Notes under the pieces: model-generated
Database searches by the model: none
Seen by the model: only the letters and a program-made list of their open reading frames with translations
What the model was told of the DNA's origin: nothing
Shown: positions 4,853 to 60,923 of the stretch, in pieces
Position numbering within the stretch: position 1 is the first letter of the stretch
How the letters are laid out: the number at the start of each line of letters is the position of its first letter
Assembly (NCBI GenBank): GCA_965219385.1
Contig: CBDCNM010000002.1
Coordinates: forward strand, 3,544,305-3,608,304
From: Candidatus Latescibacterota bacterium
GTDB lineage: Bacteria; Latescibacterota; UBA2968; UBA8231
DNA: 64,000 nucleotides
Reading direction: 5' to 3'
Program-made: the position numbers and the translations under genes

Positions 4853-6050
4853 CACAGTACACGACAAAACGTAAAAGACCTGCACTCATTGGAACAAGGG
4901 TTTATGTTTAGGGTGTCGAATCCCGACTAACCCTCATCCTGGAGCACAGGTCTATGGCTTCCCAAACTAAGGATTTACATGCCGTTTTGCAATGGCATCT
5001 GCCCTGGCACAAAACCCGGGTGGTGTTTATCAGTGCGTTCATCTTATCCTTACTCAAGGTCATGACGGTCAATCTGACCAAAATTGCCAATGGGCTCAAC
5101 GGGCGGGTCGATAAACGGTCCAACTATCGCCGCATTCAACGCTTTTTGGCCCTATTTGAACTCGACTATGGGCTGATGGCTCAGCTGATGCTTCATCTGC
5201 TCCCCCCCCAGCGCAAGTGGCTGATGACGATGGACCGGACCACCGGGCAATTCGGCCGATTTACCATCAACATTTTGATGGTAGGTCTGGTCTACCAGGG
5301 GATGGCCTTCCCGCTGTTTTGGAGGCTGCTGAATAAAAAAGGCAATTCCAACACCCAAGAGCGCATCGCCTTGATGAAACAGGTGCTTGGGGTGCTGCCC
5401 GTCCGTCGCATCCACGCCTTGGTAGCCGACCGCGAATTCATTGGCCCGGACTGGTTTAGCTGGCTGGAGCAGCAGTCGATTCCCTTTGCCATTCGCATTC
5501 GCGAAAATGCGCAACTACCTCGGCCTACCGGCCGGTCCGGGCCGGTGCGTCGCCTCTTTGCCGACCTGCCCGTCCAGCATCAACGCATCTTGCGAAAACC
5601 GCGTCCGATCTACGGCCATTCCTTATATCTATCGGCGTTGCGCTTGGCCGAGGAGTATGGGATTGTGGTCCGCTTCCAGCAGGGGGCCTGGGGCCTCGAA
5701 CACTATCGCCCGCGTTGGGGCATTGAGTGTCTTTTCGCCGCGCTCAAATCGCGCGGCTTTGATTTTGAAGACACCCATCTCAATCAGGCCGAACGCATTG
5801 AGAAACTCATCGCCCTGTTGGCCCTGGCCGTTGCCTGGGCCTTCCTCGTGGGCCTCTGGTTAGCCCAGCACAAGCCGCTGAAAATCAAAAAACATGGCCG
5901 AAAAGAGCAAAGCCTCTTTCGCTACGGAGCGGATCATCTACAGTATATTCTGCTCAATATACAAGACCAATCCGATGCGTTTTATCAATGTGTCTGGTTA
6001 CTGATGATACCCGCAATGGCCTACAGAAACTAATTTTGTCGTGTACTATG
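4853..6050 (+). mobile_element. IS4-family element (IS10/ISAba1-like group)
   Basis: IRs cacagtacacgacaaaa / ttttgtcgtgtactatg (16/17); 8-bp TSD acactcgc at 4845-4852 and 6051-6058. Confidence 0.92.
4954..6033 (+). CDS. IS4-family DDE transposase
   Basis: SNYRRIQRF, ADREFIG, Y..RWGIE.LF..LKSRGF.FEDTH motifs. Confidence 0.92.
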   Translation: MASQTKDLHAVLQWHLPWHKTRVVFISAFILSLLKVMTVNLTKIANGLNGRVDKRSNYRRIQRFLALFELDYGLMAQLMLHLLPPQRKWLMTMDRTTGQFGRFTINILMVGLVYQGMAFPLFWRLLNKKGNSNTQERIALMKQVLGVLPVRRIHALVADREFIGPDWFSWLEQQSIPFAIRIRENAQLPRPTGRSGPVRRLFADLPVQHQRILRKPRPIYGHSLYLSALRLAEEYGIVVRFQQGAWGLEHYRPRWGIECLFAALKSRGFDFEDTHLNQAERIEKLIALLALAVAWAFLVGLWLAQHKPLKIKKHGRKEQSLFRYGADHLQYILLNIQDQSDAFYQCVWLLMIPAMAYRN

Positions 6051-6160
6051 ACACTCGCAATAAAGAACGAACAGAACGTCTATAAGTTCAGTAATATCAG
6101 CTGTATATGACCTGTCGTAGGTAGATCATGTGGGACTCACCCTTTTGGTGGAGAATTGGT

Positions 6161-6723
6161 ATGTCTGGGAAATGGTTGAGTGTTTTGCTGCTTTTCACTA
6201 CACCCGTACTGGGTATTACCTGGGAGTTTGAGGAAGAAGGAGACAGCCAGGGATGGGCGGCCGTTGAGGGTTTGAATTCAGGAGGCATTGTCTTTTATTG
6301 TCTTTTTCCTGTCCCCTCTCAAGTCGGTGGTGACAGATGGGGTATGGCGTATCTCCCTGGAAGAATTCGATCCGGCAGCTAATCTCCGGCCGGCAGTGCA
6401 ACTGGTTTCCCCTCACATCGGCCATGATTCTGAGTTGTTCGACCGGCTCGAAATCCATCTGCGGGTGATTGGTCAACAACCCTTGGAAGGGGGATCTGTG
6501 CGTTTTAGCTGGACCAATACCTTGAATCGGTTAAGCCCGGGAGTATGCGCTCCAAGACCCTGCGAAAGCCAATTTGGCCTTTGGGTGCGGGAGATAACCT
6601 ACACCACCGAATGGCAGGGAGTGGTGATCAGCGATTTGCGTAGTGGCATGTTTACGGAGAATACAGGCAACATGCGCGAAATCCTTTGGGAGGAGGAACT
6701 GATTGATCTGCGTCCCGAATTGC
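6161..6723 (+). pseudogene. 5' part of a secreted protein gene, frameshifted near 6290-6310 and interrupted by an IS1-like element
   Basis: Signal peptide MSGKWLSVLLLFTTPVLG then ITWEFEEEGDSQGWAA; reading continues in another frame (ORF 6288-6749) up to the IS end. Confidence 0.65.
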
Positions 6724-6732
6724 CCTGGTGTC

Positions 6733-7859
6733 CTAGTTCCATTGCATAGCGGGAAAGGTCAACCATTCACGTAACGACCATACATGGTCGGCTAATCCGG
6801 CGGCCATGGCCGGGGTTCGATCCGATCCGTGGCCCTGGGCGTCTTTGGCCCGAAGGGTTCGTACCGGCCAGCAGAAGTTGTAACTATACATGGTGAAATA
6901 GGTGACGGCTTCATGGATGTTCCAGTCTTTCGAGAAACAATAACTCTGGCGCGTTTTGCGCGCATTGCGATGCCGATCGGTGCCATTGTGCCGTTCCATG
7001 AACGCGGTGTTGACCGGCGCCCTGACGGCCGAGGCTTCCAAGGCGGCCTGGACGCTTTTGTCGGTGCCGCAGACGGTGCGAAATTCAATGTCAACGACGC
7101 GTCCCTGCTGGCGCGTTTTGTGCACCGTGGCCTAGTTGAGTCCCTCGGGGGGGAGGAGGTAGGGCTGCGCAGGACGCCCCGGCTTGCCGGTAGGGGGCGG
7201 GATCACTTCCTCTCCGTAGGCCTGATGAATCGCCCCTTCATAGGGCCGGTATTCGTCACGGATGAGCAGTTCAATGGCCGCATCATCGGTGCGCTGCTGG
7301 AATGCTTGCACCACCTGCTCGACCTGTTCGACCGTGCGCTTGCCCGGCACCACCGCGATCACCAGGCGATGTTCCGGATCATAGGCGACGTGATCCCAGT
7401 GGTCGCCCTGATGCGCATCCTGCGGATGCTCCGGATCACAGTGCTTCTCTTTCTTGCCGACGAAAGCCCATTTCTCATCGAACTGGCCTTTCCGGGTCTG
7501 AGGGGGGAAAAAGCGACCCACTCGTCATGTAGATCCTTGGAGTGGCGCCCTTCCAGCTTGTTGTAGCGGACCACGGTCTCTTTGGTTACCCCACCCCCCG
7601 TCAGGCGGGTGGTGGAACGGACCCCACACTCTTCCTGGATATGCTGGAGCACCGACACGATCTTGTCCTCGTCCAGGTGGGCCTGGAACAGGGCCGTACC
7701 TTTGCGCTGGGAAAAGCGGGCTTTGCAGCTGCGGCAATACAGCAGGCGCAGGGGCTTCTTCTTCCCATAGCGGGCGCACACCGTCAGATTTTCCAGACCG
7801 CGCAGACCGTAATCCGGGCAGTCCTTATTGGGGCAGCAGAAGGGGGAAAGGTCATCCAT
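6733..7859 (-). pseudogene. IS1-family transposase (Zn-finger/HTH plus DDE), frameshifted, with internal TAG at 7132-7134
   Basis: CCPNKDC...CRSC, QFDEKWAFV, NTAFMERHNGT, YNFCWP, RTPAMAAGLADHVW across three ORFs. Confidence 0.85.
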
Positions 7860-7941
7860 CGTTGTCCTCCATAAAGGGAACTTTAATCAAAAGCTTCACT
7901 TATCTAAACCTTGCTAGAGGATAAGAAAATAATCAAAACCG

Positions 7942-9180
7942 TGTAGTGGACCCCAAAAACTGGACCACTGGTTAAGGTGGAATTATCTTATCAGTGGAGG
8001 TAACCATGCGTCGAAAAATCATACGCCTGAATTCAAAGCCCAGGTGGCGCTGGAAGCGCTCAAAGGGCTGAAAACGCTCAATGAACTGGCCAGCGACTAT
8101 GGGGTCCATCCCAACCAGATCAGCCAGTGGAAGCGCCAACTGCAGAGCGAATCCCAGCATCTATTTACCCGCCGTCCTACGCCGGACCAACGAGCCGAAG
8201 AAGAATTGAAAGCTCATCTGTATCAGCAAATCGGCCCGCTCAAGGTGGAGCTGGACTGGGTGAAAAAAAAGCTGCCCTCTTCGATTGAGATGAAACGGGC
8301 CCTTATTGATGTGCCGCATCCCCCACTCAGCATCCGACGCCAGTGTGCCTTGTTGGGTTTACCGCGTTCGTCGTTTTACTATAGCCCGGCTCAGGCTAGC
8401 GCTGAGGAGTTGGTCCTGATGCGGCGGATCGACGAGCAATATACGCGTACTCCTTTCTATGGCAGTCGAAAGATGGTCACCTATCTGGGGCAGCAAGGCT
8501 GCTCAGTCAATCGCAAACGGGTCCAGCGTCTCATGCGCCCGATGGGGTTAGAAGCGATCGCGCCTGGAAAGCGGACCAGCACGCCTCATCCAGGGCACAA
8601 AGTCTACCCCTATCTGCTGCGCGGCTTGACCATTGATCGCAGTGATTACGTAGGGTGCACCGACATCACTTATATCCGTCTATACCAAGGCTTTATGTAT
8701 CTAGTCGCCGTCATGGACTGGTGTAGCCGCTACGTGTTGACCTGGCAGCTATCCAATACACTGGACGTGAACTTCTGCCTCGATGCCTTGGAGACGGCAC
8801 TGAGGGGGGGGCCACCCGACATCTTTAACAGCGACCAGGGCGCTCAGTTTACCCGTCATGCTTTTACTGATCGTTTGCAACAGGCTCACATCGCCATCAG
8901 TATGGATGGACGCGGCCGGATGCTGGACAATATCTTTATCGAGCGGCTTTGGCGTAGTCTCAAATACGAAGATATCTACCTGAAGGACTACGCCACCGTC
9001 CCCCAACTCTACGAGGGATTAACGGCGTATTTCCATTTCTACAACGAGGAGCGTCCTCATCCGTCCTTGGATAATCAGGTCCCAATTGAGGTGTATCATG
9101 CCGGCCGAATCCATCTCATTTAACCCCAGCTTTTCACCTTAAAATACCCCAGAGTGGTCCAAACAATGGGGTCCACCTCC
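7942..9180 (+). mobile_element. IS3-family element, copy a; orfA/orfB fused, 1-bp deletion just after the start codon
   Basis: IRs tgtagtggacccc...ggacca / tggtcc...ggggtccacctcc; 3-bp TSD ccg; DITY, NSDQGAQF, NIFIERLWRSLKYE; A5 vs A6 run after ATG compared with copy b. Confidence 0.92.
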
Positions 9181-9206
9181 CCGCTCAATGGTTCCCGTAC
9201 ACGAGG

Positions 9207-9615
9207 CGAATTCCCTAAGGCAACACAATTGTACATGCGTATTATTGAACAGTTCCCCGAAACTCAGGAAGCCTTTCAGGCACAGCAGGTTCTGATCTAC
9301 TTGAGCGATATGGCAGCCGACTCGCTCTACACTGAGGGCATGGCTCTGTACGACAGAGGGGAATACAAGCAGGCAATTGAGGTCTTACGGCAAATCGTCG
9401 AGCGCTATCTCGGCACACCCAGTGAGGCAGCAGCCCGGTGCAATATCGGCGTTTCCTACCAGCAGATGGGCGAATGGCGCAAAGCTGCCAAAGTTTACGA
9501 GGAAGCCATAACGGCGCTGAAGGGGCGAGAAGAGGAGTGGCAAGCTCTGGAGTTTGCTCGGGCAAATCGGAGGTGGATTACGCGCACATACTTCGGCGAG
9601 GAGGTGATGGAGTGA
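9207..9615 (+). pseudogene. TPR-repeat C-terminal fragment left of the IS insertion's downstream side
   Basis: ADSLYTEGMALYDRGEYKQAIEVL..IVERY, ARCNIGVSYQQMGEWRKAAKVYEE; no start outside the IS. Confidence 0.75.
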
Positions 9616-10367
9616 CGCATTTCTGGAACAGGTTTGTCTTGCTGGTGATTTTCCCATCCAGTTGCCTCCAGATACCACCTGACCTCCTTTACAAGATTCG
9701 CATTGAGCCGCATGAAGCTTTTTTGCAGGAAACAACCTACTACTTTGATCTGGAGGACAGTACTACTGTGTTCCAGAAAAAGGGTTTCCGTCTGAAGCTG
9801 CACTATATGAGCGATCAGGAACTGAACCGAGAATACGCCCGCTCCACCTTCCGCGATCCCAATCTCAATCCCTTCACTTACGGCACGGACCGCGATCTGG
9901 ACAAGGGGTATTCCCCTCCACGCTTCACGGTCTTCCAAATGACTGTGGTCAACCAGAATAACTCTAAGGCCATGGTGGACCCGGCCAAAATGGCTTTACA
10001 TACGGACCGAAGTGAGGTATTCGAGTACTGGGACGTGCTCAAGCACGATGCAACGAACAGCTTCGAGCAATACTACCTTAAGCGACGCGGTAAGGGCGGC
10101 AACGAGAATTACTACTTTCAGGAGCGCATGGGTCTGGTGCGGCAGGACCTGTACAGGCGTCATGTCTTCGTCTTCAAGGGGGAGGAGTACAGTGGCAAGA
10201 TAGTCTTCGCTCCGCTGCACAAGGATGTGCGCGAGGTGAAGATAAAGGTGAAGGACATTGTGCTGCAAGTGGATGCGTTCGACCGGCCTAAGGAGACTGT
10301 GGACGCCGAGTTCCGTTTCCAGGTAGAGCAAAAGGTAGTATCCATGGACCTAGAACGGTCTCAATGA
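9612..10367 (+). CDS. Lipoprotein of unknown function, paralog of 18592-19329
   Basis: GTG start overlapping the upstream stop; lipobox-like VIFPSSC; shared NPFT[YF]G, RFTVF, DP.K..L, LH.DV motifs. Confidence 0.8.
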   Translation: MTHFWNRFVLLVIFPSSCLQIPPDLLYKIRIEPHEAFLQETTYYFDLEDSTTVFQKKGFRLKLHYMSDQELNREYARSTFRDPNLNPFTYGTDRDLDKGYSPPRFTVFQMTVVNQNNSKAMVDPAKMALHTDRSEVFEYWDVLKHDATNSFEQYYLKRRGKGGNENYYFQERMGLVRQDLYRRHVFVFKGEEYSGKIVFAPLHKDVREVKIKVKDIVLQVDAFDRPKETVDAEFRFQVEQKVVSMDLERSQ

Positions 10368-10536
10368 ATGGGGATGGAAGACGCGGCGGGGCTTGATGAT
10401 TTTGCACAAGGTGCTGTTGAGCGATTCAATGGCATTGGTGGTGTAGATAACGCGGCGAATGTCTTTGGGAGAGGCGAAAAAGGGTAAGATAAAGGTAGTG
10501 ACCGATTGCCAGTTACACAGTTAAATTGACAGACCC
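10368..10536 (-). mobile_element. IS256-family remnant (terminal IR plus short transposase fragment)
   Basis: Minus strand ILPFFASPKDIRRVIYTTNAIESLNSTLCKIIK; IS256-type end ttacacagttaaattgacagaccc. Confidence 0.8.
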
Positions 10537-10827
10537 ACGAAAAGTGCCAAAACCGTTTGATGATACGTCTATTCCACCATCCGTCTGGAAATCGTCCGGG
10601 CTCTCTATGTATCCTTTGTGTAACAAATATGAGGATAAAACTACTCACTCCCTGCTGTTCAAGCCTCTGGCAGTCCTTGTTTATATTTCATCTATCTATC
10701 TGTTATAATTTCATTTAGACCGTTTTCTATAATCTTGGCATACATTTTGCGCGGCAGCCTGGCGAACCTCTCTCAGATACCCTGAGTGGAGCGTTTTCCC
10801 TTACACCTTACCCCATAGGAGGTTGTC

Positions 10828-11505: not shown

Positions 11506-11512
11506 GTCCAAA

Positions 11513-11549
11513 GAAACGCCCCGGAGGAATGCATCCTCCGGGGCGTTTC
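11513..11549. terminator. Likely bidirectional intrinsic terminator
   Basis: 16-bp stem gaaacgccccggagga / tcctccggggcgtttc between convergent genes. Confidence 0.85.
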
Positions 11550-11569
11550 ATAACGATGAAGAGCAAAGC

Positions 11570-12910: not shown

Positions 12911-12951
12911 GACAATCCTTACCTCAGTTTAAGAGGAGAAAAAGGGATTGG

Positions 12952-13356: not shown

Positions 13357-13395
13357 TATCTATAGGACCTCCGATTCCGATAGTGAGAACGACAA

Positions 13396-14049: not shown

Positions 14050-14110
14050 CTCTCTATACTCCTTTTTGGGGGTTGACCGCTATGAGTTCTCTCAGCAATT
14101 CACCTGCAAG

Positions 14111-26287: not shown

Positions 26288-26288
26288 A

Positions 26289-28736: not shown

Positions 28737-29548
28737 GTGAGCAATCGCCTACCCCTGACTACTCGAAAACTCCTGCTCTCCATGCTGGTTGAGGGCCTAT
28801 CCATGCGCTCGATCAGCCGCACCCTGGACATATCCTTCAACACGGTAAAGAAGATGCTGATTGACGCGGGGAAGGTCTGTGCGGCCTACCACGACAGCCG
28901 GGTTCGGGCCGTGGAGTCGCTCTATGTCGAGTGCGATGAGATGTGGTCTTCTGCTACGCCAAAGAGAAAACGGTAGCGGAGAAGGGGTCTGGTATCGGCA
29001 CTGAGGCGGGAGATGTGTGGGTATGGACGGCGATTGATCCTGAGACCAAACTACTGATTTCCTGGTATGCCGGGGACCGCTCCATGGAGAGCGGGCGGAT
29101 CTTCCTGAAGGATCTTTATAGCCGGATGGCGATCCGGGTACACCTTATCTCAGACCAGTATGGCGTCTACCTGGAAGCGGTCGACGAGGTGTTCGGGATG
29201 GACGCGAAACATACTCTGCTCAAAAGGGGCGGCCCCCGAGGGGAGGGCTTGCCCACCACGGCCCACGTCGAGCGACACAACCTGACCATGCGGATGGCAA
29301 TGCGGCGGTTTACCCGACGCACCAACGCCTTCAGCAAGCGCCTGCCGCGTCATCGGGATATGCTGGCCCTCTACATGGTGCATTACAACTTTGTGCGGAT
29401 TCATCAGAGCTTGCGAATGACACCGGCTATGGCGGCAGGCTTGACCGATACCCTCCACGATATAGAATGGTTGGCCGGGCTTATTGAGGCGGAGCAGCCC
29501 GAGCCGGACAGGCCCAAGACCTACCGGAAAAAATTCATTTCAAACTGA
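28737..29548 (+). pseudogene. IS1-family transposase with a single frameshift near 28950
   Basis: LVEGLSMRSISR HTH; ECDEMWS|FCYAKEK; VWVWTAID; HVERHNLTMRMAMRRFTRRTNAFSK; YNFVRIH; TPAMAAG. Confidence 0.88.
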
Positions 29549-29631
29549 TACAAAACCCAAAAACCCTATCTCTATTCCGGATCTTGACACCACCGGCACC
29601 CCCCCCGTACAATTCGATGCCGACCTTTAAG

Positions 29632-31078
29632 CTCGATTTTATCCAAACGCGCATGGCAGGAGGCCGGTATCCTCCGTACTGTTGATGGTATCCAAGCATC
29701 GACAGCCCAGGAGAAACCGATGAGCCCCCTGCCGAAAGATATAATAACGATTTTGTCGCCCTTTGCCCCCCTTTTTTCGAGCCGCGTTTGGCCGCAGGCT
29801 CAGACGCTGTTGGTCGGGGCGCTGTTAGCCCCGGGTAAACGCACGGTCAGCGCCGTGTTGGAGGTGTTGGGCTTGAGCCAACAGCCTACCTTTCAAACCT
29901 ACCACCGGATCCTCAACCGCTGTGTGTGGTCGCCCCTGGCCGGCAGTAAGCTACTCCTCCAGGCGTTGGTGGCCGCCTTTGCCCCCCACGGGCCCCTGGT
30001 CCTGGGCCTGGATGAGACCATCGAGCGGCGCCGGGGCGCCCAGATTGGGGCCCGAGGCATCTACCGGGATCCCGTCCGCTCGAGTGGGCCCCACCTGGTC
30101 AAGGCTAGCGGCTTGCGCTGGCTGTCGTTGATGCTGGTAGCGCCTATCCCTTGGGCGGATCGAAGTTGGGCCTTACCCTTTATGAGTGTGCTGTGTCCGT
30201 CGGCCCGCTACTATACTCAGCGCCAGCGCACCCCCCTCACCCTGTTGCAACGGGGGCAGACTATGCTCAAGCTGGTAGCGCGCTGGCTGCCCACCCGCCG
30301 GCTGGTCGTGGTCGCCGATAGCACCTTCTCCGCCTTGGCCTTTCTCGACGCGGTTCGGCCCCACGTGGGGCTGATTACCCGCTTGCGGTTGGATGCGGCC
30401 CTGTATGACCCACCACCAACCCGCACGCCGCACACGCGGGGACGCCCCCGCGGCAAAGGCGCCCGGCAGCCCACCCTCCAGCAGCACCTGAACGATCCGA
30501 CTACCCCTTGGCACCCCCTCACCCTGGACCGGTGGTATGCCGCCGGCCCCTATACAGTGGAAACCTACAGCCAAACGGCGCTGTGGTATCACACTGGCTT
30601 GCCCGCCGTGCCCCTCCGCTGGCTGCTGATCCGAGACCCGGCCGGCCGCTTCGCGCCCCAAGCCTTGCTCTCGACCGATGTGCGTCTGTCCCCTCGGCAA
30701 ATGCTGACCTATTTTCTCCAACGCTGGTCGGTAGAAACTACCTTTGAGGAAGCCCGCGCCCATCTGGGCATGGAAACCCAACGCCAATGGAATGAGCGGG
30801 CCATTGCCCGGACCACGCCGGTCATCTTGGCCTTGTTTAGTCTGGTCGCCCTCATCGCCAATCGGCTGGCCCCCAAAAGCGCCTCCCCCTGCCATGCCAC
30901 GGCCTGGTATGGCAAACGAAAACCCACCTTTTCCGATGCCGTGGCCTGGGTCCGACAACGGCTCTGGCAGGCTTTTTCCAACCTGCCCAACCAACACGAC
31001 CTGATAAAAATCCCTCGAAGCCTACTCAACCGCTTGATACACACCGTCTCGTACGCTACATAAATGGATAAAGTCGAG
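29632..31078 (+). mobile_element. IS701-like element, copy 1 (transposase 29720-31063)
   Basis: IRs ctcgattttatcca / tggataaagtcgag; intact 447-aa DDE ORF; no full TSD. Confidence 0.9.
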
Positions 31079-46486: not shown

Positions 46487-47976
46487 CACCCCTTTGAAGG
46501 TGGGTTAATTTCCATTTATGATGCCTGTTTTGTGGTTTTTCGTTGTGCTATAAGTCGAGCGGTCGAAAGGTGCGGTTTGGTCTTTTCCGTTCGTCGCTTG
46601 GGCGGTTGTTTTTGGGGCCCCCGTGGATGCTTTTTAAAACATCTCAGGTCGACTTTTCCAGCTAAGTGCAGCAGCCTTTCCACCCACTGGGGCATGCTCC
46701 ATTGACGGAAAAGGCCCCATTGCTCCGGAGCAATGGCAATCATCATGCCGCGATAGGGGTTGGCCATTTCGTTGGCTAGATAGTAGCCTGAACGCTCTTT
46801 TTCAATCTTCTCGACGCCGTGTACACAGCGTAAGGCCGCCTTGACCACGACGAGCAGGTTGTAGGCGACCAGGGCCAGGCAAAAGGCAAACAGGGCCGCG
46901 GGTGGATAGCCCAGCGTGTTGATTTCAGCATTGAGGGGCTCGGCCAATTCTTGAAAGGCACGTTCTATCGTCCACCGAGGGCGATACAGACGCGCGATCT
47001 TTTGAGCCGAAGCGCTGCGTTGGGGCAGATTGGTCAGGATGATGATCTCGGTTTCGCCCTCCCGGGTGGGTTGATCCAGCTGCAAAGCGGTACGACGCCA
47101 TAGATGGGTGCCCCCGTCTTCATCCCCCACGCGGATGCGTTGTTCATAGACCACACCCGTGTCAATACGTCCTTGCTCGATGAGCACGCTGGCTTCTTCC
47201 CAGGGCAGTTTCTGATGATGACGTATAATGAAATAAGCCGATCGGGCTTCGAGCCCCGATAGAAAGCCGCGGGTACAAAAGGTGCGATCGGCCAACCATA
47301 CATCGTTGGCCTCGACCAAGGGGAGCACCTGGTCCAACAAGGCGCGTTCCTGGGCATGCCCCTCTTCACAGCAAATGGCCGGCGTGGCCATCTGTAGGGC
47401 GGGGTCATAGACCACCAGCGATTTACCCGGTAAGGCGCCCGAGGACAGTACGCGTAATTCGTCCAGGCGATGCGGGGTGGCCCCCAGACAATTACCGTCC
47501 ACAATCTTGAGACGGTAGCCGGGCACCCAAGGCGGAAGCACGCCCCCCATCTGGGTCACGATGGGCCCCATTGATTCCACACTATAGTCTACCAAGGCGG
47601 AGGAGGTGGGCGGCTCGATTCCATTGAGCTTGTTGTAGACCGACTGGATGGACACACTCAGGTTGGCCACGTCGGCTTGATAGGCGGCATGCATGGACGG
47701 TTGAATCCCACAGACCACCTGACTCATCAGATCGAACACGGTGGAAAACAACAACGCACGGGTATACTGCCGGTCGGCCGTATGCGCGAATAATTCATCG
47801 AGCTTTTCCGGTTGCAGCACCCGTTCCAACAGGCCGCCCACCATCACCGCGACCGGACTGTGCTCTTCAAAACGCTTGAAAACAGGGTCTAACATGGAGG
47901 ACTCCTCCAGTTTGTGTGGATTAACTGGAGTTAAATTAATGGGTTAGTGGATGCTCTGTCCACCTTCAAAGGGGTG
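46487..47976 (-). mobile_element. IS4-family element (transposase 46516-47895) with 12-bp TSD
   Basis: Perfect 17-bp IR cacccctttgaaggtgg; TSD ggaggcttggac at 46475-46486 and 47977-47988; VDG, ADR, Y..RWTIE.AF motifs. Confidence 0.93.
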
Positions 47977-47996
47977 GGAGGCTTGGACCAAAAGAA

Positions 47997-48026: not shown

Positions 48027-48049
48027 CCAAGCTGCTTGGGGTATACAGT

Positions 48050-50354: not shown

Positions 50355-50676
50355 CCTACTCGACGAAGACCGAGCCGAGTAGCCGTCGACGTTGTACTCT
50401 AGTTAATTAAGAAGGCTTCTTAGTACTACTCTGTCGATTAGCAGTGCTAGACCCATAAGTCCCTATTTTTCAGCAGACTGCCGAAAGGCTTAAAACTTCT
50501 CTATTTCTGATAATGCGCTGTTTCTTCGGAGCTTACGGCACAACTCCTAATCGGTGTTGGCCAGAAGATTGCGACCCAAATGGGCAAAAATAGTGGACAA
50601 TTGAGCGCATTGTCCGCCAATTAACAAAGTAGTATTAGGCTGACTTGGTGACGAATCAGTATTCTGACTGTTCTTA

Positions 50677-51604
50677 GAAGCTGTTTTAGAATTCAGATTT
50701 TCCACCGATTCTCTTGACCAAGAGGTGAATCATCGCAATGTAAATAAAGGCTTCGCTATTTCGGGGTAGGACTTCATAGTCCTTGGAAAGGCGTCGAAAA
50801 TTCAATAACCAGGCAAAGGTGCGCTCCACCACCCAACGCCATTTCATCACTTGAAATCCCTGGCCTTCTCGCTGGACCACTGCCAGGTCAATTTTGTGCG
50901 TCCGCTTCAAACTTGCAACCCATGCCTTGATGGCCTCGCCGCGATACCCACCATCGACCCATAGCTTTCGAAGGCGGGTCAAGCCAGCGGCAAAATAGGC
51001 TTTGAGCAACACCTTCAACCCGTCCGGATCGGCACCGTCGGCAGGCGAGACAAACGCGGAGATGATAAGCCCCAAGGGGTCAACAAGGAGAGGGCGCTTG
51101 CGGCCATTGACCTTCTTGCCAGCATCATAACCCTTTGATTCACCTTGGGTTGCAGTCTTGATGCTTGGGCTGTCTATAGAGCCTGCCGAAGCGGTGGGCT
51201 TGCGGCCTTGACGGCGCCTTTCCCTTCTGGAGAGTGCCGGATGGATCTGCCTCCAGATGCCTTTTTTGCTCCAGGTGTTGAATACCCATACACGGTTTGC
51301 CAGCACCCATACTCCTTGGGCAGCATCCGCCACTGACCGCCCGTTTGGGTCACATACACAATGGCGTTGAACCCCTCGCGCAGAGGAACCGGTGGACGAC
51401 CGCGACTCCCGGGATGCCATTTGCGTTTGGGAAGGAGGGTGAGGAGAAGTTGCCATTGCGCTTCGATCAAATCGGTCGGATATTGTCTGAGCGTATTCAT
51501 CTTCATCCTTTCGTTTCAGGTGGTTTTGGACAACCTGAATTTGGATAGATGAATACGCGCTTTTCAACTCTTTTTTTAACCCCTCACATTTTTAAAACAG
51601 CTTC
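50677..51604 (-). mobile_element. IS5-family (IS1031 group) element, frameshifted transposase
   Basis: IRs gaagctgtttta / taaaacagcttc; TSD TTA; GYDAGKKVNGRKR, RWVVERTFAW. Confidence 0.9.
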
Positions 51605-51608
51605 TTAG

Positions 51609-53055
51609 CTCGACTTTATCCATTTATGTAGCGTACGAGACGGTGTGTATCAAGCGGTTGAGTAGGCTTCGAGGGATTTTTATCAGGTCGTGTTGGTTGG
51701 GCAGGTTGGAAAAAGCCTGCCAGAGCCGTTGTCGGACCCAGGCCACGGCATCGGAAAAGGTGGGTTTTCGTTTGCCATACCAGGCCGTGGCATGGCAGGG
51801 GGAGGCGCTTTTGGGGGCCAGCCGATTGGCGATGAGGGCGACCAGACTAAACAAGGCCAAGATGACCGGCGTGGTCCGGGCAATGGCCCGCTCATTCCAT
51901 TGGCGTTGGGTTTCCATGCCCAGATGGGCGCGGGCTTCCTCAAAGGTAGTTTCTACCGACCAGCGTTGGAGAAAATAGGTCAGCATTTGCCGAGGGGACA
52001 GACGCACATCGGTCGAGAGCAAGGCTTGGGGCGCGAAGCGGCCGGCCGGGTCTCGGATCAGCAGCCAGCGGAGGGGCACGGCGGGCAAGCCAGTGTGATA
52101 CCACAGCGCCGTTTGGCTGTAGGTTTCCACTGTATAGGGGCCGGCGGCATACCACCGGTCCAGGGTGAGGGGGTGCCAAGGGGTAGTCGGATCGTCCAGG
52201 TGCTGCTGGAGGGTGGGCTGCCGGGCGCCTTTGCCGCGGGGGCGTCCCCGCGTGTGCGGCGTGCGGGTTGGTGGTGGGTCATACAGGGCCGCATCCAACC
52301 GCAAGCGGGTAATCAGCCCCACGTGGGGCCGAACCGCGTCGAGAAAGGCCAAGGCGGAGAAGGTGCTATCGGCGACCACGACCAGCCGGCGGGTGGGCAG
52401 CCAGCGCGCTACCAGCTTGAGCATAGTCTGCCCCCGTTGCAACAGGGTGAGGGGGGTGCGCTGGCGCTGAGTATAGTAGCGGGCCGACGGACACAGCACA
52501 CTCATAAAGGGTAAGGCCCAACTTCGATCCGCCCAAGGGATAGGCGCTACCAGCATCAACGACAGCCAGCGCAAGCCGCTAGCCTTGACCAGGTGGGGCC
52601 CACTCGAGCGGACGGGATCCCGGTAGATGCCTCGGGCCCCAATCTGGGCGCCCCGGCGCCGCTCGATGGTCTCATCCAGGCCCAGGACCAGGGGCCCGTG
52701 GGGGGCAAAGGCGGCCACCAACGCCTGGAGGAGTAGCTTACTGCCGGCCAGGGGCGACCACACACAGCGGTTGAGGATCCGGTGGTAGGTTTGAAAGGTA
52801 GGCTGTTGGCTCAAGCCCAACACCTCCAACACGGCGCTGACCGTGCGTTTACCCGGGGCTAACAGCGCCCCGACCAACAGCGTCTGAGCCTGCGGCCAAA
52901 CGCGGCTCGAAAAAAGGGGGGCAAAGGGCGACAAAATCGTTATTATATCTTTCGGCAGGGGGCTCATCGGTTTCTCCTGGGCTGTCGATGCTTGGATACC
53001 ATCAACAGTACGGAGGATACCGGCCTCCTGCCATGCGCGTTTGGATAAAATCGAG
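51609..53055 (-). mobile_element. IS701-like element, copy 2 (transposase 51624-52967)
   Basis: Near-identical to copy 1 (one N>D change); 5-bp TSD cttag. Confidence 0.92.
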
Positions 53056-53095
53056 CTTAGGGTTTTGGTCCTTTTTCCTCCTCTCAACTATAGAA

Positions 53096-54251
53096 GGAGG
53101 TGGACCCCATTGTTTGGACCACCCTGGGGTATTTTAAGGTGAAAAGCTGGGGTTAAATGAGATGGATTCGGCCGGCATGATACACCTCAATTGGGACCTG
53201 ATTATCCAAGGACGGATGAGGACGCTCCTCGTTGTAGAAATGGAAATACGCCGTTAATCCCTCGTAGAATCCGGCCGCGTCCATCCATACTGATGGCGAT
53301 GTGAGCCTGTTGCAAACGATCAGTAAAAGCATGACGGGTAAACTGAGCGCCCTGGTCGCTGTTAAAGATGTCGGGTGGCCCCCCCCTCAGTGCCGTCTCC
53401 AAGGCATCGAGGCAGAAGTTCACGTCCAGTGTATTGGATAGCTGCCAGGTCAACACGTAGCGGCTATACCAGTCCATGACGGCGACTAGATACATAAAGC
53501 CTTGGTATAGAGACGGATATAAGTGATGTCGGTGCACCCTACGTAATCACTGCGATCAATGGTCAAGCCGCGCAGCAGATAGGGGTAGACTTTGTGCCCT
53601 GGATGAGGCGTGCTGGTCCGCTTTCCAGGCGCGATCGCTTCTAACCCCATCGGGCGCATGAGACGCTGGACCCGTTTGCGATTGACTGAGCAGCCTTGCT
53701 GCCCCAGATAGGTGACCATCTTTCGACTGCCATAGAAAGGAGTACGCGTATATTGCTCGTCGATCCGCCGCATCAGGACCAACTCCTCAGCGCTAGCCTG
53801 AGCCGGGCTATAGTAAAACGACGAACGCGGTAAACCCAACAAGGCACACTGGCGTCGGATGCTGAGTGGGGGATGCGGCACATCAATAAGGGCCCGTTTC
53901 ATCTCAATCGAAGAGGGCAGCTTTTTTTTCACCCAGTCCAGCTCCACCTTGAGCGGGCCGATTTGCTGATACAGATGAGCTTTCAATTCTTCTTCGGCTC
54001 GTTGGTCCGGCGTAGGACGGCGGGTAAATAGATGCTGGGATTCGCTCTGCAGTTGGCGCTTCCACTGGCTGATCTGGTTGGGATGGACCCCATAGTCGCT
54101 GGCCAGTTCATTGAGCGTTTTCAGCCCTTTGAGCGCTTCCAGCGCCACCTGGGCTTTGAATTCAGGCGTATGATTTTTTCGACGCATGGTTACCTCCACT
54201 GATAAGATAATTCCACCTTAACCAGTGGTCCAGTTTTTGGGGTCCACTACA
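53096..54251 (-). mobile_element. IS3-family element, copy b (2-bp insertion and ~80-bp internal deletion)
   Basis: Near-identical to 7942-9180 with the same IRs; the LDNIFIERLW..YATVPQ segment is missing. Confidence 0.92.
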
Positions 54252-54308
54252 GTTTAAAGTGGACCCCTTTGTCAAGACCATTTTTGGGAAAAGATAAGAC
54301 ACCCTTTA

Positions 54309-55180
54309 GAAGCTGTTGAGTTATTCAGATGCATTTAGCGACCGTAATCTTTATCATGGCAATACGAATCATGTTCTCTGCGGATTGGGTGAGGATTTCG
54401 AAGTCTTTGGCCAAGCGTCGAAATCCACCCAACCAAGCCAAGGTTCGTTCGATGATCCAGCGTTTGGGCACCACTTGGAACCCTTGGGTTGGTTTATCCG
54501 CTATATCGAGTCGCAACCCCAACAGGTTTTCAACGAATGCAACGGTGGTACCGCGATAGCCTTGGTCGCCGCAGAAGGCTTCGACCGAATCATACTTTTT
54601 TCCGCGACCCGATCACATACGTCCCATCCTTGGCTAGTATCGGCCCCATTGGCGGCATGTACTTGGACGGTCAGCATATTACCCAGCGTATCGGGGGCGA
54701 GGTGGCGTTTACGGCCTTTGATCTTTTTCCCCCCCATCCACGCCTCGATCCTGACTGGCCTATTGGGTTTTAACCGATTGCGAATCGATCAAGGCATAGG
54801 TCGGATGCTCGTTTTTGCCCTGCTTGTGACGGGCGCGCTCATGCAGCGCGTCCAGGGCTTGTTCCCACACGCCACGCTGATTCCAGCGTCGGTAATGGTC
54901 CTAGACGGTATCCCAAGGGGGAAAATCAAGCGGCAGCATCCGCCACGGAATACCCCCTTTGACGACCTATAAAATGGCATTGACCACCTCGCGTTTGGCA
55001 TACTTGCCGGGGTTGCCCCGGGGATCAGGACGGTCGAAAAACCCCGCGATCAGGGCCCATTCTGGATCCGTCAAGTCACTTGGATACCCGCCCATACTAA
55101 AAGCCTCCCTGCGCAAAAAAGACAGCAAGCAATACATTATACATACAATACATACAGAGCTTTTTTAACTCAACAGCTTC
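54309..55180 (-). mobile_element. IS5-family (IS1031-like) element, degenerate
   Basis: Perfect 15-bp IR gaagctgttgagtta; TA on both flanks; GKKIKGRKRH, RWIIERTLAW. Confidence 0.88.
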
Positions 55181-55486
55181 TAAGATCCCCCCTGGTGGAC
55201 TTCCGCTGGCGTTTGGTAGGCCAACGATTGGTGTGGTCTTTGGTGGTTATAATAGTCGAAATAGGTGTCCAGCCCCTGGGTCAAGTCGGGTACGGTCTCG
55301 TACGATTTAAGGTAGATGTCCTCATACTTTAGACTGCGCCAGAGCCGTTCAATGAAGATGTTGTCCACGCACCGGCCTCGTCCATCCATCGAGAGGGCGA
55401 TCGGTTCGGCTTCTAAGGCGTCGGTGAACGGGTGCCCGGTAAATTGAGCCCCTTGATCGGTATTGAAGATCTCTGGTTTGCCCTGA

Positions 55487-56418
55487 GAGGCCGTCTGAAA
55501 ACCATGTTTATTCTAAGCGAGTCGTTTGAGTAGCAAGTAAATCATGGCGATCTGAATCAACGCTTCGCTGTGGCGGGTCAACACTTCATAATCTCGGGCA
55601 TGCCGACGAAAGTTCATCAACCACGCAAAGGTTCGTTCGACCACCCACCGTCGTTTGAGCGGTGTAAATCCATTTCCTTGTTTAGCGACGACTTCCAAGT
55701 CGATCTTATGCGTCTTTTTTAAGTCGGCTACCCACCCTTTGAGATCGGCTCCCGCAGAGCCGCCATTGACCCACAGCTTACGTAGCCTAGGTAGGCCGGG
55801 CGCAACATAGCGGGTCAACACCCGCTTCAAGCCGTCCCGATCGCCCACATCGGCGGCGGTGACTTCCACCGGCCGGATCCATCCCAAGGTATCTACCACC
55901 AGGTGACGTTTGCGTCCTTTGATCTTTTTGCCGGCGTCATAACCGATTGTTTCTCCTTGGGTTGCCGTCTTGATGGTCTGGCTATCGACCCCGCCGGCCG
56001 ACGGGGTCGATAGCCGACCCTGCCGGCGGCGTTCCCGCTGGGTGAGTCGATCCAATATCGGCGGCCAGACCCCTTGTAGGCTCCAGCGGCGAAAGTAGTC
56101 ATACACCGTTTTCCACGGCCCCAAACTCGCGGGTAACAAAGCCCAAGGACAGCCGGTCTTGGTCAGATACAAAAGACCATTGATGATCTGGCGTGGATCC
56201 CGCCGCGGGCGGCCCGGCCCGCCAGGAGGCCACGTCGAGGCGGGTAGTAACGGCTTGATTAGACGCCATTGCGCATCGGTTAGATCGGTGGCATATTCGT
56301 CGGCAGGCGTACTCATCATAGGGGCCTTTCTATTCAGATTTTGTGGTGAAACCTGAATATGGCCCGATGAGTACGCCGATTCAAATACGGGCTACATCAA
56401 GAGTTTTCAGACGGCCTC
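55487..56418 (-). mobile_element. IS5-family (IS1031 group) element (transposase 55513-56319)
   Basis: 16-bp IR gaggccgtctgaaaac; TSD TGA; YATDLTDAQW, GYDAGKKIKGRKRH, RWVVERTFAW. Confidence 0.93.
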
Positions 56419-56963
56419 TGAGAAAGCGCCGTGTATAAGGCGTCCAAGCAAAAATAGCCATCCAACGTGTTGGACAACGCCCAGGCCAGGACATAGCGAC
56501 TATACCAGTCGATGATCGCTACCAGGTACATGAAACCGGTGGCCATCGGAAGATAGGTGATAGCCGTCGACCATACCTGATTGGGGTAGCCGATGGGGAC
56601 CTGGTTCAATAGATAGGGATACACTTTGTGCTCCGGTTGAGCGACCGAGGTCTTGGGTTTCGGATAGAGCGCTTCAATCCCCATCGTGTGCATCAAGCGC
56701 TGGACCCGTTTGCGATTGACCCGGTAGCCGGCCCGACCCAGATAGGCACGGAGCCGTCTCGATCCTAAGAAAGGATGGCGCATATACTCTTCGTCGATCA
56801 AACGCATCAAATGCAGATTCTCTTCCGATTCTTGGGCGGGTTCATAGTAGTAGGCCGACCGGTGCAGGCCAACGAGTTGACATTGCCGACGCAGACTCAG
56901 CGTCGGATGACGCGGCTCGATGAGGGCGCGTTTGGCCTCAAGAGAGCTGGGTAGCTTTTTTTT

Positions 56964-57335
56964 GGCTCGTCAGTAGAATTCGTGGGTGAATTGTGGCTCG
57001 GGTAAATCGCCAAGCTGATGGAATGAAGCGATTTGGAGTGCCTTGAAGGTGCGGCATCCGAATGCTTTTCTCACGGTCAGATTCCATTTCAGGTTCAAGC
57101 CCTCGACCATGGCGTTGTTGAACTGCTTTTTGGCCCTGAACCAATTGAGGATGAGCTCTCGATGACGGCGTAGCCTCTTGGCGATGTCTTTCATCGGTTC
57201 GATCTTGCTTCTCATCGTGCGGAAACACCAGCGGTTGAGGAATTTCTCAGCCCAGGCAGGGTAGGTGTAGTTCCAGAAGCGCTGGAAGTCCTCCTTGAGC
57301 AGGTAGGCTCTGACCGTCCGCAGGTTCATCTTCAC
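56964..57335 (-). mobile_element. ISL3-family 3' fragment
   Basis: GGCTC terminus; RAYLLKEDF, ILNWF, VEGLNLK, LPEPQFTHEFY. Confidence 0.85.
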
Positions 57336-57337
57336 TA

Positions 57338-58291
57338 GGCTGTGTACGATAAAAGGTTTTTGAGCCAAATACGGATGAAAGCGAGTATGATCATCGCCTG
57401 ATACCTGTCGGCGTGTTTTTCATATCGGGTGGCAATGCGTCGGTTTTCTTTGAGCCGTCCGATGAGTCGTTCCACCACATTGCGCTGCCGATATAAGTCC
57501 TTGTCGAATCCGATGGCCTCAGGGGGATACTCCCCCTGCCGATTTTTTCGATGGGCGATCACGGGCTTGGTTCGCCGTTGGCGCAGTTTCTCGCGGATGG
57601 ATTGACTATCATAGGCTTTATCACCGGCCAGGGCTTCAAACCGGGTGCGCTTGGGACCGGGTTTGCCTCCAATGGCCACTGAATCGAGCAAGGCGTCTAC
57701 CTGGGTGGATTCATGCTGCTGACCCGGGGTTATGGTAACCGTGATGGGCTTGCCCGCCCCTTCACAAAGGACATGAATTTTGGTGGTATAGCCGCCACGG
57801 CTTTGCCCAAGCCCCTGTTTTTGAAGGCTTTCTTCACGGCTTATGGAAACACCATTTATGTTTTTTTTGCCCCGGCGGCTGCTTTATGCGCCCGAACGAT
57901 GCTCCCATCGAGGGCGGCGAACGTAAAATCGATCTGATCCATATGGCGCGCTTGGGCTTCTAACGCATCCAGGATCTGTTGCCATAAGCCTTTTTGTTCC
58001 CAACGACGAAACCGGTCGGCCCCCGTGCTCCAAGGGCCGTACCGGGGGGGCAAATCGCGCCAAGGCGCGCCGGTGCGTAAAATCCAGAAAATGCCGTTGA
58101 GCACTTGGCGATGACTCCGATAAGGGCAGCCCGGTTTGCCCGACCGTTCGGCAGGTAACAACGGCTTTAGCAGGGCAAATTCTTCATCGGTTAAGTCGTA
58201 GCGGGCCATCGGTATCCCCTCCTTCGATTCAATGGTTGAAAGAGAGTATACCACGTCCCAATACTATTTCAAGCAATTATCGTACACAGCC
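57338..58291 (-). mobile_element. IS5-family (IS427 group) element with an orfA/orfB A-run frameshift
   Basis: Perfect 15-bp IR ggctgtgtacgataa; TSD TA; RYDLTDEE, WRDLP.RYGPW, GDKAYDS, RNVVER, RRIATRYEK. Confidence 0.92.
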
Positions 58292-58295
58292 TAGT

Positions 58296-59742
58296 CTCGA
58301 CTTTATCCATTTATGTAGCGTACGAGACGGTGTGTATCAAGCGGTTGAGTAGGCTTCGAGGGATTTTTATCAGGTCGTGTTGGTTGGGCAGGTTGGAAAA
58401 AGCCTGCCAGAGCCGTTGTCGGACCCAGGCCACGGCATCGGAAAAGGTGGGTTTTCGTTTGCCATACCAGGCCGTGGCATGGCAGGGGGAGGCGCTTTTG
58501 GGGGCCAGCCGATTGGCGATGAGGGCGACCAGACTAAACAAGGCCAAGATGACCGGCGTGGTCCGGGCAATGGCCCGCTCATTCCATTGGCGTTGGGTTT
58601 CCATGCCCAGATGGGCGCGGGCTTCCTCAAAGGTAGTTTCTACCGACCAGCGTTGGAGAAAATAGGTCAGCATTTGCCGAGGGGACAGACGCACATCGGT
58701 CGAGAGCAAGGCTTGGGGCGCGAAGCGGCCGGCCGGGTCTCGGATCAGCAGCCAGCGGAGGGGCACGGCGGGCAAGCCAGTGTGATACCACAGCGCCGTT
58801 TGGCTGTAGGTTTCCACTGTATAGGGGCCGGCGGCATACCACCGGTCCAGGGTGAGGGGGTGCCAAGGGGTAGTCGGATCGTTCAGGTGCTGCTGGAGGG
58901 TGGGCTGCCGGGCGCCTTTGCCGCGGGGGCGTCCCCGCGTGTGCGGCGTGCGGGTTGGTGGTGGGTCATACAGGGCCGCATCCAACCGCAAGCGGGTAAT
59001 CAGCCCCACGTGGGGCCGAACCGCGTCGAGAAAGGCCAAGGCGGAGAAGGTGCTATCGGCGACCACGACCAGCCGGCGGGTGGGCAGCCAGCGCGCTACC
59101 AGCTTGAGCATAGTCTGCCCCCGTTGCAACAGGGTGAGGGGGGTGCGCTGGCGCTGAGTATAGTAGCGGGCCGACGGACACAGCACACTCATAAAGGGTA
59201 AGGCCCAACTTCGATCCGCCCAAGGGATAGGCGCTACCAGCATCAACGACAGCCAGCGCAAGCCGCTAGCCTTGACCAGGTGGGGCCCACTCGAGCGGAC
59301 GGGATCCCGGTAGATGCCTCGGGCCCCAATCTGGGCGCCCCGGCGCCGCTCGATGGTCTCATCCAGGCCCAGGACCAGGGGCCCGTGGGGGGCAAAGGCG
59401 GCCACCAACGCCTGGAGGAGTAGCTTACTGCCGGCCAGGGGCGACCACACACAGCGGTTGAGGATCCGGTGGTAGGTTTGAAAGGTAGGCTGTTGGCTCA
59501 AGCCCAACACCTCCAACACGGCGCTGACCGTGCGTTTACCCGGGGCTAACAGCGCCCCGACCAACAGCGTCTGAGCCTGCGGCCAAACGCGGCTCGAAAA
59601 AAGGGGGGCAAAGGGCGACAAAATCGTTATTATATCTTTCGGCAGGGGGCTCATCGGTTTCTCCTGGGCTGTCGATGCTTGGATACCATCAACAGTACGG
59701 AGGATACCGGCCTCCTGCCATGCGCGTTTGGATAAAGTCGAG
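58296..59742 (-). mobile_element. IS701-like element, copy 3 (transposase 58311-59654)
   Basis: Protein identical to copy 1; 5-bp TSD ctagt at 58291-58295 and 59743-59747. Confidence 0.92.
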
Positions 59743-59745
59743 CTA

Positions 59746-60923
59746 GTGTTGCGTCGTATAAATAACTTTACGAGATGGTGGTCATGTCGTAGGTTTCTCT
59801 TACCACCCCTTCTGAAAGGAGAGATCTATGGCGATGGGGCGTCCGTTAACGCCGTTAGCGCTGAGTGCGTCGGCCCGAGAACAATTGGAATCGATGGCCC
59901 AATCACGGAGTCTTCCACACGGGTGGGTGCGGCGAGCGGAGATCGTCCTTTTGGCCGCCGAAGGCTGGCCCCATGAAGCGGTCGCTGCAGCGGTGGGTGT
60001 GACGCGCGCTACGGTGGGCAAGTGGCGCCGGCGTTTTCTCGAAAACGGACTCCATGGCTTGCATGATGAACTGCGTTCAGGGGCGCCGCGATCGATCACC
60101 GACGAGCAGGTGGCCGAGGTGGTATACAAGACGCTGAAGACCAAGCCCCAAAGACCGAACCCAGTGGTCGGTGCGCTCCATGGGCGCGGAAACCGGCCTC
60201 ACCAAGGACGCGGTGCATCGCATCGGGCGCACGTATGGTTTGCAGCCCCACCGACACAAGCACTTCAAGCTTTCCACCGATCCTTTCTTGGTCGACAAAG
60301 TACGGGATATCGTCGGCTTATACATGCATCCCCCCGAGCACGCCCTGGTTTTATGCGTCGACGAGAAGAGCCAGATCCAGGCGTTGGAACGAAGTCAGCC
60401 CCTGTTGCCCCTGGGCCTGGGCTACGTGGAAGGGGTTACGCACGACTACAAGCGCCATGGCACCACCACTCTGTTTGCCGCCCTGGACGTGGCCACCGGT
60501 GAAGTGATGACTCCGTGCAAGCCCCGTCATCGTCACCAGGAGTTCCTCCCGTTCCTACGCCACATCGAGGACAACGTGCCCCGCGGTCTCGACGTGCATC
60601 TCGTGGTTGACCATTACGCCACCCACAAGCATGCCAAGGTCAAAAAGTGGCTGGCGCGGCGCCCCCGATTTCACCTTCACTACACCCCCCCCTATGCTTC
60701 GTGGCTCAACCAGGTGGAGATTGGGTTCAACATCATCACGCGCCAGGCGGTTCGGCGGCACTCGTTCCGCAAGGTAAGAGAGCGCATCGAGCGCATCGAG
60801 CGCATCGAACGCTATACCGCCCAATGGAACGCCAACGCGCACCCTTTCGTATGGACGGCTACGGCCGATTCCATCCTCGCGAAAATCAAGAGACTTTGTG
60901 AACGAATCTCTACGACACAACAC
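59746..60923 (+). mobile_element. IS630-family element (two ORFs, frameshift)
   Basis: IRs gtgttgcgtcgta / tacgacacaacac; TA flanks; VDEKSQIQAL, HDYKRHGTTTLFAALD, SWLNQVE. Confidence 0.92.

Follow-up and report, generated by a model that had tools for sequence, protein, structure and literature searches.

Introduction

In Neurospora and other Ascomycota, repeat-induced point mutation (RIP) changes C to T, usually in the context CpA, through homologous pairing and with a requirement for RID/DIM-2. Diversity-generating retroelements (DGRs) convert A to N, acting on a single strand within a short variable repeat. The usual view of bacterial insertion sequences (IS) is that they disappear through deletion and through ordinary decay led by transitions. 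Here, we describe a context-specific A:T>C:G signature in IS of a Candidatus Latescibacterota genome, referred to as G000 (5.81 Mb, 60% GC, two contigs). The analysis started from a stretch of 64,000 nucleotides (C2:3544305-3608304; hereafter the window), in which a first-pass annotation had reported that transposases of many IS families depart from their motifs mostly by single A>C or T>G changes, and had proposed either RIP-like mutagenesis of mobile or repeated DNA or a mutator.

Changes of this type have been reported from other bacteria. The mutT spectrum of Pseudomonas aeruginosa is described as T>G and context-free (PMC10625568), and that of Escherichia coli as 3'-A-biased (10.1101/2022.10.21.513255). 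In wild-type Burkholderia cenocepacia and Mycobacterium smegmatis, which are described as having no known repair defect, A:T>C:G is a leading transversion (10.1101/011841, PMC4938668), while a transient-misalignment hot spot at AC3+ (GGGT) in E. coli and Salmonella gives A:T>C:G changes that extend a run (PMC13250602). A literature search, with most subscription journals lying outside it, found no report of IS-restricted A:T>C:G mutagenesis in prokaryotes.

Substitution spectrum of insertion sequences

Homologues were gathered for four families (IS3, IS4, IS5 and IS630) from Ca. Latescibacterota genomes, all outside the genus of G000. We scored columns with at least 85% agreement among at least eight element clusters from other genomes, and took the direction of change from the majority or outgroup letter of each column rather than from a tree-based reconstruction. 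In the order A>C, A>G, A>T, G>A, G>C, G>T, which is used for all spectra below, the 41 unfiltered clusters of G000 gave 105, 43, 56, 90, 70 and 44 departures (A>C, 105/408). A closeness filter (at least 30 columns and at most 5% multi-step or ambiguous departures per cluster) retained 16 of the 41, with 35, 1, 5, 13, 7 and 7 departures in 1598 columns. A:T>C:G therefore made up 35 of 68 unambiguous single-base departures, 29 ambiguous ones having been set aside, compared with an A>C share of 100/902 among 627 genes of host paralogue families, from which a few IS had not been removed. The reported excess in transposases is thus beyond chance (Fisher p = 1e-14).

The same filter applied to other genomes (61 of 79 clusters) gave 50, 19, 6, 37, 22 and 6, with A>C concentrated in G144 (8/9), G153 (5/5) and G156 (4/4). 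At the DNA level, IS630 copies showed 27, 6, 0, 31, 7 and 3 in G000, 15, 7, 1, 13, 4 and 4 in G153, and 1, 7, 4, 9, 17 and 8 in G101.

Among the A:T>C:G changes of the filtered G000 set, the changed base on the coding strand was A in 17 and T in 18 cases, and this symmetry rules out a transcription-coupled origin. Of 32 distinct events, 23 had C immediately 5' of the changed A (background 30%, p = 2e-6) and 14 had CC there (background 11%); no clear preference was seen at the 3' base. The 5'-C was also preferred in the IS630 DNA-level set (16/24, p = 7e-4) and more weakly in G153 and G088 together (9/17, p = 0.12). As judged from these sequence comparisons, the original observation is confirmed and can be stated more precisely as a CpA>CpC signature concentrated in IS.

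The most heavily loaded copy was met by chance in a region examined as a host control:
C2:1638087-1639673, ISKra4 element of G000, with the family taken from a relative's protein

Compared with seven relatives, this copy carries 27, 2, 3, 5, 5 and 1 non-synonymous changes, whereas the relatives carry 0-5 A>C each. Its A>C changes occupy 27 of 381 A/T opportunities at the DNA level (G>A, 5/473), account for 19 of 23 changes at conserved residues and lie at CpA in 23 of 27 cases (p = 3e-6). Twelve of the 27 fall within 35 codons, a clustering that was matched in 0 of 5000 random draws from CpA sites. Transitions lead in four genes of this island that are not part of an IS, among them a truncated fragment containing a stop; 4/23 of their A>C changes lie at CpA, and three of the four genes were compared with only two rows. 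The CpA context fades at the IS boundary of this island.

Host genes and other repeats

We then compared IS with host DNA that is broken or repeated. In 26 broken host loci scored with in-genome paralogues, which are little decayed and include frameshifts that may be assembly errors, A>C accounted for 5/48 departures. A frameshifted enolase-family gene beside an IS630 copy departs more than any listed orthologue (29 orthologues, 87-92% identity), with 0 A>C among 14 departures in 315 conserved columns, and five further broken single-copy host genes gave 7/41. Pooled, the six genes gave 7/52 against 54/91 for IS including the ISKra4 copy (p = 7e-8), a comparison in which that copy joined the IS set post hoc and the host controls are few and may be younger. 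In one broken-gene set 11 of 23 genes had no scorable column, and several broken loci had too few homologues. Interruptions of host genes by old IS were sparse as well: 9 interruptions occurred in 155 IS blocks, mostly by young families.

Singleton changes in repetitive extragenic palindromes and miniature inverted-repeat transposable elements (REP/MITE) were G>A-led (32, 58, 11, 123, 26 and 26; A>C, 32/276), although A>C was the top transversion per site (6.1 per 1000 versus 2.1-3.5) and had a 5'-C in 17/32 (background 26%). Host duplicates showed more non-synonymous A>C than A>G (39 versus 25) with a 5'-C in 28/46 (background 33%), while among those of at least 96% identity A>C made up only 2 of 46 tabulated changes. 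Host gene-fragment copies, mostly repeat-domain paralogues and thus a weak control, gave 23/190 non-synonymous A>C. The pattern tracks repetitiveness or mobility: IS show it strongly, other repeats less so though in the same context, and single-copy genes at a low level.

These repeats bear on a different explanation, namely a genome-wide, lineage-variable A:T>C:G bias at CpA, which would stand out in IS as the oldest unselected DNA, provided that pseudogenes of the host are recent or soon lost by deletion and that few silent sites carry A/T. The 5'-C context and the A>C excess in REP/MITE and host duplicates count toward it, as does the wild-type precedent of B. cenocepacia (10.1101/011841). 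Further evidence came from 24 host genes of 25 genomes of a related genus, g13 (about 90% identity), grouped by IS counts when one earlier result had already been seen. At four-fold sites the A>C:G>A ratio was 24:153 in seven genomes whose IS are A>C-rich, compared with 5:255 in genomes lacking such IS (p = 2e-6). However, this contrast is confounded by branch length and kinship, because the rich genomes are kin on longer branches; it fell to p = 0.14 for A>C:A>G (24:19 versus 5:11; non-synonymous, p = 0.02), and the g13 single-copy host genes lack the CpA context (26/99, 11/37). A pseudogene scan in g13 suffered from shadow-ORF (open reading frame) contamination, and its counts were discarded. 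The low A>C shares of the broken single-copy host genes and of the 26 earlier loci, the G>A-led REP/MITE singletons (123 versus 32) and the nearly identical host duplicates also stand against a genome-wide bias, which leaves the ISKra4 cluster unexplained. We rank it second, as a doubtful but conceivable explanation of the signature.

Of the two readings offered in the first-pass annotation, mutagenesis directed at mobile or repeated DNA agrees better with G000, both in the contrast between IS and broken single-copy genes and in the fading of context at the IS boundary. It falls short of proof because the host controls are few and possibly younger.

Insertion sequences of the window

The window contains IS of the families IS1, IS3, IS4, IS5, IS630, IS701 and ISL3:
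4853..6050, + strand, IS4-family element; transposase 4954-6033, NCBIfam NF033591 above cut-off; W98G (T>G, 5245)
6733..7900 (ends approximate), - strand, IS1-like transposase in pieces; TAG at 7132-7134; Pfam DDE_Tnp_IS1 matches weak
7942..9180, + strand, IS3-family copy a; W217G (T>G, 8653), S284R (A>C, 8854), Q78P (A>C, 8237)
28737..29548, + strand, IS1-family transposase, taken as a control in the first-pass annotation; weak IS1 matches in Pfam and NCBIfam
29628..31078, + strand, IS701-family element, clean control; 37-copy family with no A>C variants among copies
46487..47977, - strand, IS4-family element, 2 copies; ADRTF codon at 47283
50673..51608, - strand, IS5-family element; Q>P codon 51168, H>P codon 51093
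51609..53057, - strand, IS701-family copy, clean control
53096..54251, - strand, IS3-family copy b; 99.5% identity to copy a, with W217G and S284R in common
55483..56422, - strand, IS5-family element; 8-copy family, four A>C changes polymorphic among copies, four-gamete conflicts
56425..56960 (5' part) and 55180-55480 (3' part), - strand, IS3-family copy c; catalytic-motif D>A (A>C, 56563)
56964..57338, - strand, ISL3 fragment, identical to C2:1319213-1319587
57334..58294, - strand, IS5-family element, clean control; 14 copies, zero variants
58296..59744, - strand, IS701-family copy, clean control
59742..60927, + strand, IS630-family element; 7-copy family; N>H 60612, T>P 60690, W>G 60723

Thirteen of the 15 motif changes named in the first-pass annotation were set against homologues of other genomes, and 14 were examined when a case with one homologue is included; 10 were supported as A>C or T>G, two were wrong, one was split and one was based on a single homologue. 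The expected residue was found in nearly all homologues for W>G of the IS4 element at 4954 (W in 18/20), W>G and S>R of IS3 copy a (VWCTD, W in 18/18; QFTS, S in 15/17), the catalytic D>A of IS3 copy c (D in 18/19), DSQS>DSPS and RKRH>RKRP of IS5 (Q in 23/23, H in 22/23), and N>H, T>P and W>G of IS630 (DNY, N in 15/15; PTY, T in 15/15; VEIWF, W in 13/15). Q>P in IGQLK of IS3 copy a is supported but weak, as Q is present in only 8/14 homologues. In RPHQSL>RPHPSL the position itself is divided among S (7), Q (6) and T (1) of 14. Two readings did not survive the alignment: the supposed N>T in DRTNW of the IS4 element, where homologues have H (20/20), and GCQW>GCPW of IS5, where P is already present in 18/23. 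For the IS4 element at 46516 only two relatives were found, and N>T in its ADRNF motif, with N in a single homologue, was left out of the supported count. No usable homologues were found for Y>TAG in the IS1-like element or for FGFR>FGCR in ISL3. W217G and S284R occur in both IS3 copies a and b, as had been stated.

Several neighboring features are worth recording. At 50400-60930, some ten IS from six families form a stacked or nested arrangement, in which IS3 copy c is split by an IS5 element and the ISL3 fragment. An aminotransferase class I/II fragment at 60927-61487, probably a truncated host gene, abuts the IS630 end. A 1014-bp host gene segment (17459-18472) has a copy with 99.9% identity at C1:945001-946014. 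Relatives of the IS630 element in other genera reach 82-94% amino-acid identity with up to 36 matches per genome, which indicates, on sequence similarity, recent horizontal spread.

Read support

Window positions 4700-11600 are present in six public runs (three studies), four of which were compared as Logan contigs over positions 1-20000; one of the four may be the source sample. The IS4 element at 4853-6050, the IS1-like element and IS3 copy a differed by 0-1 letters per contig in 4/4 runs of the three studies. The reads thus support the variants in these elements, and read errors are excluded as the source of the signature for positions 1-20000. Strain differences outside REP repeats were few, and the single-site ones among those listed are transitions, which makes them uninformative. 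Although T>G is a common short-read error and the library types are not on record, an artefact of sequencing, polishing or assembly is largely refuted for this part of the window by the agreement among runs; the clean 37-copy family and the presence of the signature in other genomes speak against it as well, and we regard it as extremely improbable.

In run X3, contigs break at both ends of the IS4 element and depth is 39.9 compared with about 22 in the flanks, which suggests a second identical copy of the mutated element in that population. Small strain-level insertions were present in IS3 copy a at 8678 (runs X2 and X3) and in the IS1-like element at 7677 (X3), and the frameshift of IS3 copy b coincides with the position of the 8678 insertion.

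Copy number, selection and exchange among copies

Among 23 IS4 copies of G156, A>C was found at 23/373 non-synonymous (6.2%) and 3/47 four-fold (6.4%) opportunities, compared with 7/291 (2.4%) and 19/47 (40.4%) for A>G; four-fold A>G rates may be inflated, as repeated C>T at silent sites may be misread as A>G. The similar A>C rates at both classes of sites imply that A>C ignores selection, whereas transitions do not.

The first-pass annotation had raised a dependence on copy number. In G000, low-copy IS families showed 34 A/C-type and 30 transition non-synonymous differences, and four high-copy families showed 0 and 7. When polarized by an outgroup, A>C made up 12/18 variants in low-copy families and 0/12 in high-copy families (37, 24 and 15 copies; p = 3e-4), three families being polarized by one outgroup row. 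The highest-copy families are therefore clean and the low-copy families loaded.

These results can be read in terms of a dedicated RIP-like defense, in which a host enzyme or guide-directed complex would damage or mis-repair adenines at CpA in IS or repeats while sparing their frames. Every contrast between IS and host genes would fit such a defense, as would the blindness to selection in the IS4 copies of G156 and the fact that IS3, IS4, IS5, IS630 and ISKra4 are all affected despite different transposition chemistries. A bacterial Argonaute that singles out IS and other multicopy DNA for cleavage is a described precedent for such targeting (10.1101/2020.03.01.971358). However, the highest-copy families are untouched, a 7-copy IS630 family carries fixed A>C changes and has spread nonetheless, the load is mild (1-7% of A/T sites), and no candidate enzyme was identified, no genome-wide search having been made for one. 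An undescribed defense that writes A:T>C:G at CpA into IS and repeats, as a prokaryotic counterpart of RIP with different chemistry, appears unlikely and ranks third among the explanations; if true, it would explain the radical changes in nearly every older IS family and why only recent invaders are clean.

Four-gamete conflicts were found in 29/55 site pairs of the G000 IS5 family and 2649/5565 of the G156 IS4 family, showing sequence exchange (conversion) among IS copies. As a separate candidate, biased conversion through MutY repair of an A:G heteroduplex was rejected because the frequency of derived A>C alleles is not raised (mean 0.31 at 52 sites, versus 0.37 for G>A at 94 sites; p = 0.56), contrary to what GC-biased gene conversion predicts.

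Two IS630 copies have 7 A>C in common and differ mostly by transitions. Several changes are common to all copies of a family and are therefore older than its last copying. Together with the variation of the signature between genomes, this would agree with damage acquired elsewhere, in an earlier mutator host or a plasmid or phage vector, followed by import of the damaged elements. Nevertheless, A>C variants segregate among copies within G000, as the low-copy families show, and a single context is common to five unrelated families; such an origin is, in our view, very unlikely, and we rank it fourth.

Transitions among near-identical IS copies recur at C and G of TCGA on both strands (IS5 at 55483-56422 and IS630 families), which suggests a methylated-cytosine hot spot. 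Across the genome of G000, TCGA shows no depletion; the tetramer depleted most strongly is CTAG, at 0.41 of expectation.

Repair and polymerase genes

The genes mutS, mutL and mutM were found, stop-free, in 5/5 genomes searched, and mutY scored above cut-off in G000, contrary to what a loss of mismatch repair or of MutM/MutY would predict. A TIGR00586 match occurs in 72 of 76 family genomes, almost always a single one and for the most part inside a frame of at least 370 residues. In G000 the only match, just below cut-off, is the C-terminal domain of MutY (C2:2717395-2718531), and the predicted MutY-MutT fusion keeps its full Nudix box in all 29 genomes aligned, with or without the signature. 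A TIGR00586 search found no stand-alone MutT in G000, a point in favor of a genome-wide bias. The loss of mutT is improbable as a cause, the fused Nudix domain being alike in genomes with and without the signature. The genome-wide A:T>C:G dominance expected of a mutT mutator was not seen in REP/MITE or broken host genes. A plain mutT mutator, as the first-pass annotation had considered, thus fits poorly because of the 5'-C preference and the intact MutT-like domain.

An ISL3 insertion has removed the 5' end of an accessory Nudix hydrolase gene (C2:1318858-1319211) located in an accessory island; this gene did not match TIGR00586 at E 1e-12. Beyond the ISL3, on its opposite flank, is a partial duplicate of the 5' end of katG.

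Origin of the signature

The explanation that we rank first, tentatively, is that IS DNA is re-synthesized in an error-prone way when breaks are repaired or copies convert one another. IS DNA would be subject to an A:T>C:G process that favors 5'-CpA (=5'-TpG), affects both strands and is in part patchy, and the changes would be laid down as the DNA is re-synthesized during repair of excision breaks or copy-to-copy gene conversion. MutY acts on A:G and A:8-oxoG. In the chemical step, G or oxidized G may be inserted opposite template A and then fixed, possibly with the aid of MutY. Because A>C rarely creates stops, reading frames would remain uninterrupted even as Trp, Gln, His, Leu and Thr give way to Gly, Pro and Arg. 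The damaged copies could still be propagated, via trans-acting transposase or conversion; clean copies would be recent invaders only, and other repeats would receive a weaker dose and single-copy genes little. Break repair that turns mutagenic through oxidized guanine has a reported precedent (PMC5542668).

Several results weigh against error-prone re-synthesis. The families expected to convert most (37, 24 and 15 copies) are those without A>C, the closest partner of the ISKra4 copy in today's genome has at most 68% identity, and the 35-codon cluster of that copy contains changes of both strands. Over-dispersion among elements is marginal (p = 0.047). Unpolarized A/C-type differences show a modest contrast between IS repeats (149/477) and host repeats (988/5292), which favors a genome-wide bias, and four-fold A>C in g13 host genes reached 35.6 per 1000 A/T sites (24 changes) in the seven genomes with A>C-rich IS versus 4.6. 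Of five genomes searched, G000 and G153 alone yielded a full DinB, and the sole full-scoring dinB of G000 (C2:4040055) is cut by an IS5 copy abutting an IS701 copy; with DinB cut or not found, no polymerase for the re-synthesis was identified.

If true, a context-specific, one-way transversion load on many IS families would represent a new mutational process, possibly a defense. Many transposases with open frames would then be damaged, estimates of neutral spectra based on IS would be biased, and the drift of IS to high GC would be mechanistic. On a conservative reading, a distinct CpA>CpC signature exists in an uncultured phylum and differs between sister species. The contrast between IS and their flanks makes the question directly testable.

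Comparison with known systems

Like mutT mutators, G000 IS show dominant A:T>C:G on both strands; in mutT mutators the changes are genome-wide, whereas in G000 they are 5'-C-biased without a clear 3' bias and concentrated in IS, and the Nudix box is intact. In B. cenocepacia and M. smegmatis, A:T>C:G is reported to be genome-wide and to remain below transitions, in contrast to the A>C:A>G ratio of 35:1 at conserved residues of G000 IS, and the M. smegmatis hot spots described (GACC, CACC) have CC on the 3' side, whereas the C is 5' in G000. The AC3+ hot spot is likewise context-dependent and run-extending as reported, in a mirror geometry: at least three C lie 3' of the A there, and one or two C lie 5' in G000.

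Mutagenic break repair in E. coli (DinB, RpoS, 8-oxo-dG) resembles the proposed process in its local error-prone synthesis at repaired breaks, although the abstract of the report mentions neither restriction to IS nor a CpA context (PMC5542668), and DinB is cut or was not found in several of the affected genomes. DGRs share adenine-specific mutagenesis in bacteria; G000 differs in that A changes to C (A>G 1, A>T 5), on both strands (A 17, T 18) and over whole elements.

The likeness to RIP lies in a one-directional, dinucleotide-biased and patchy mutation of transposons of many families at CpA, and two of its traits, dinucleotide preference (5'-C in 23/32) and clustered changes (12/27 in 35 codons), are present. 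RIP alters C in fungi, whereas A is altered in this bacterium, where the C:G>T:A excess of RIP is absent (A:T>C:G 35/68, G>A 13/68). RIP responds to a homologous second copy; in G000 the highest-copy families are clean, and the most loaded copy, ISKra4, is single today, although it may have had partners in the past. On the sparing of single-copy DNA the results are divided: 54/91 in IS versus 7/52 in broken single-copy host genes, from few controls that may be younger, and A>C-rich silent sites in g13 host genes. The term RIP-like therefore holds only as an analogy, and the signature, an A:T>C:G load at CpA in IS of many families, is neither RIP nor a plain mutT spectrum.

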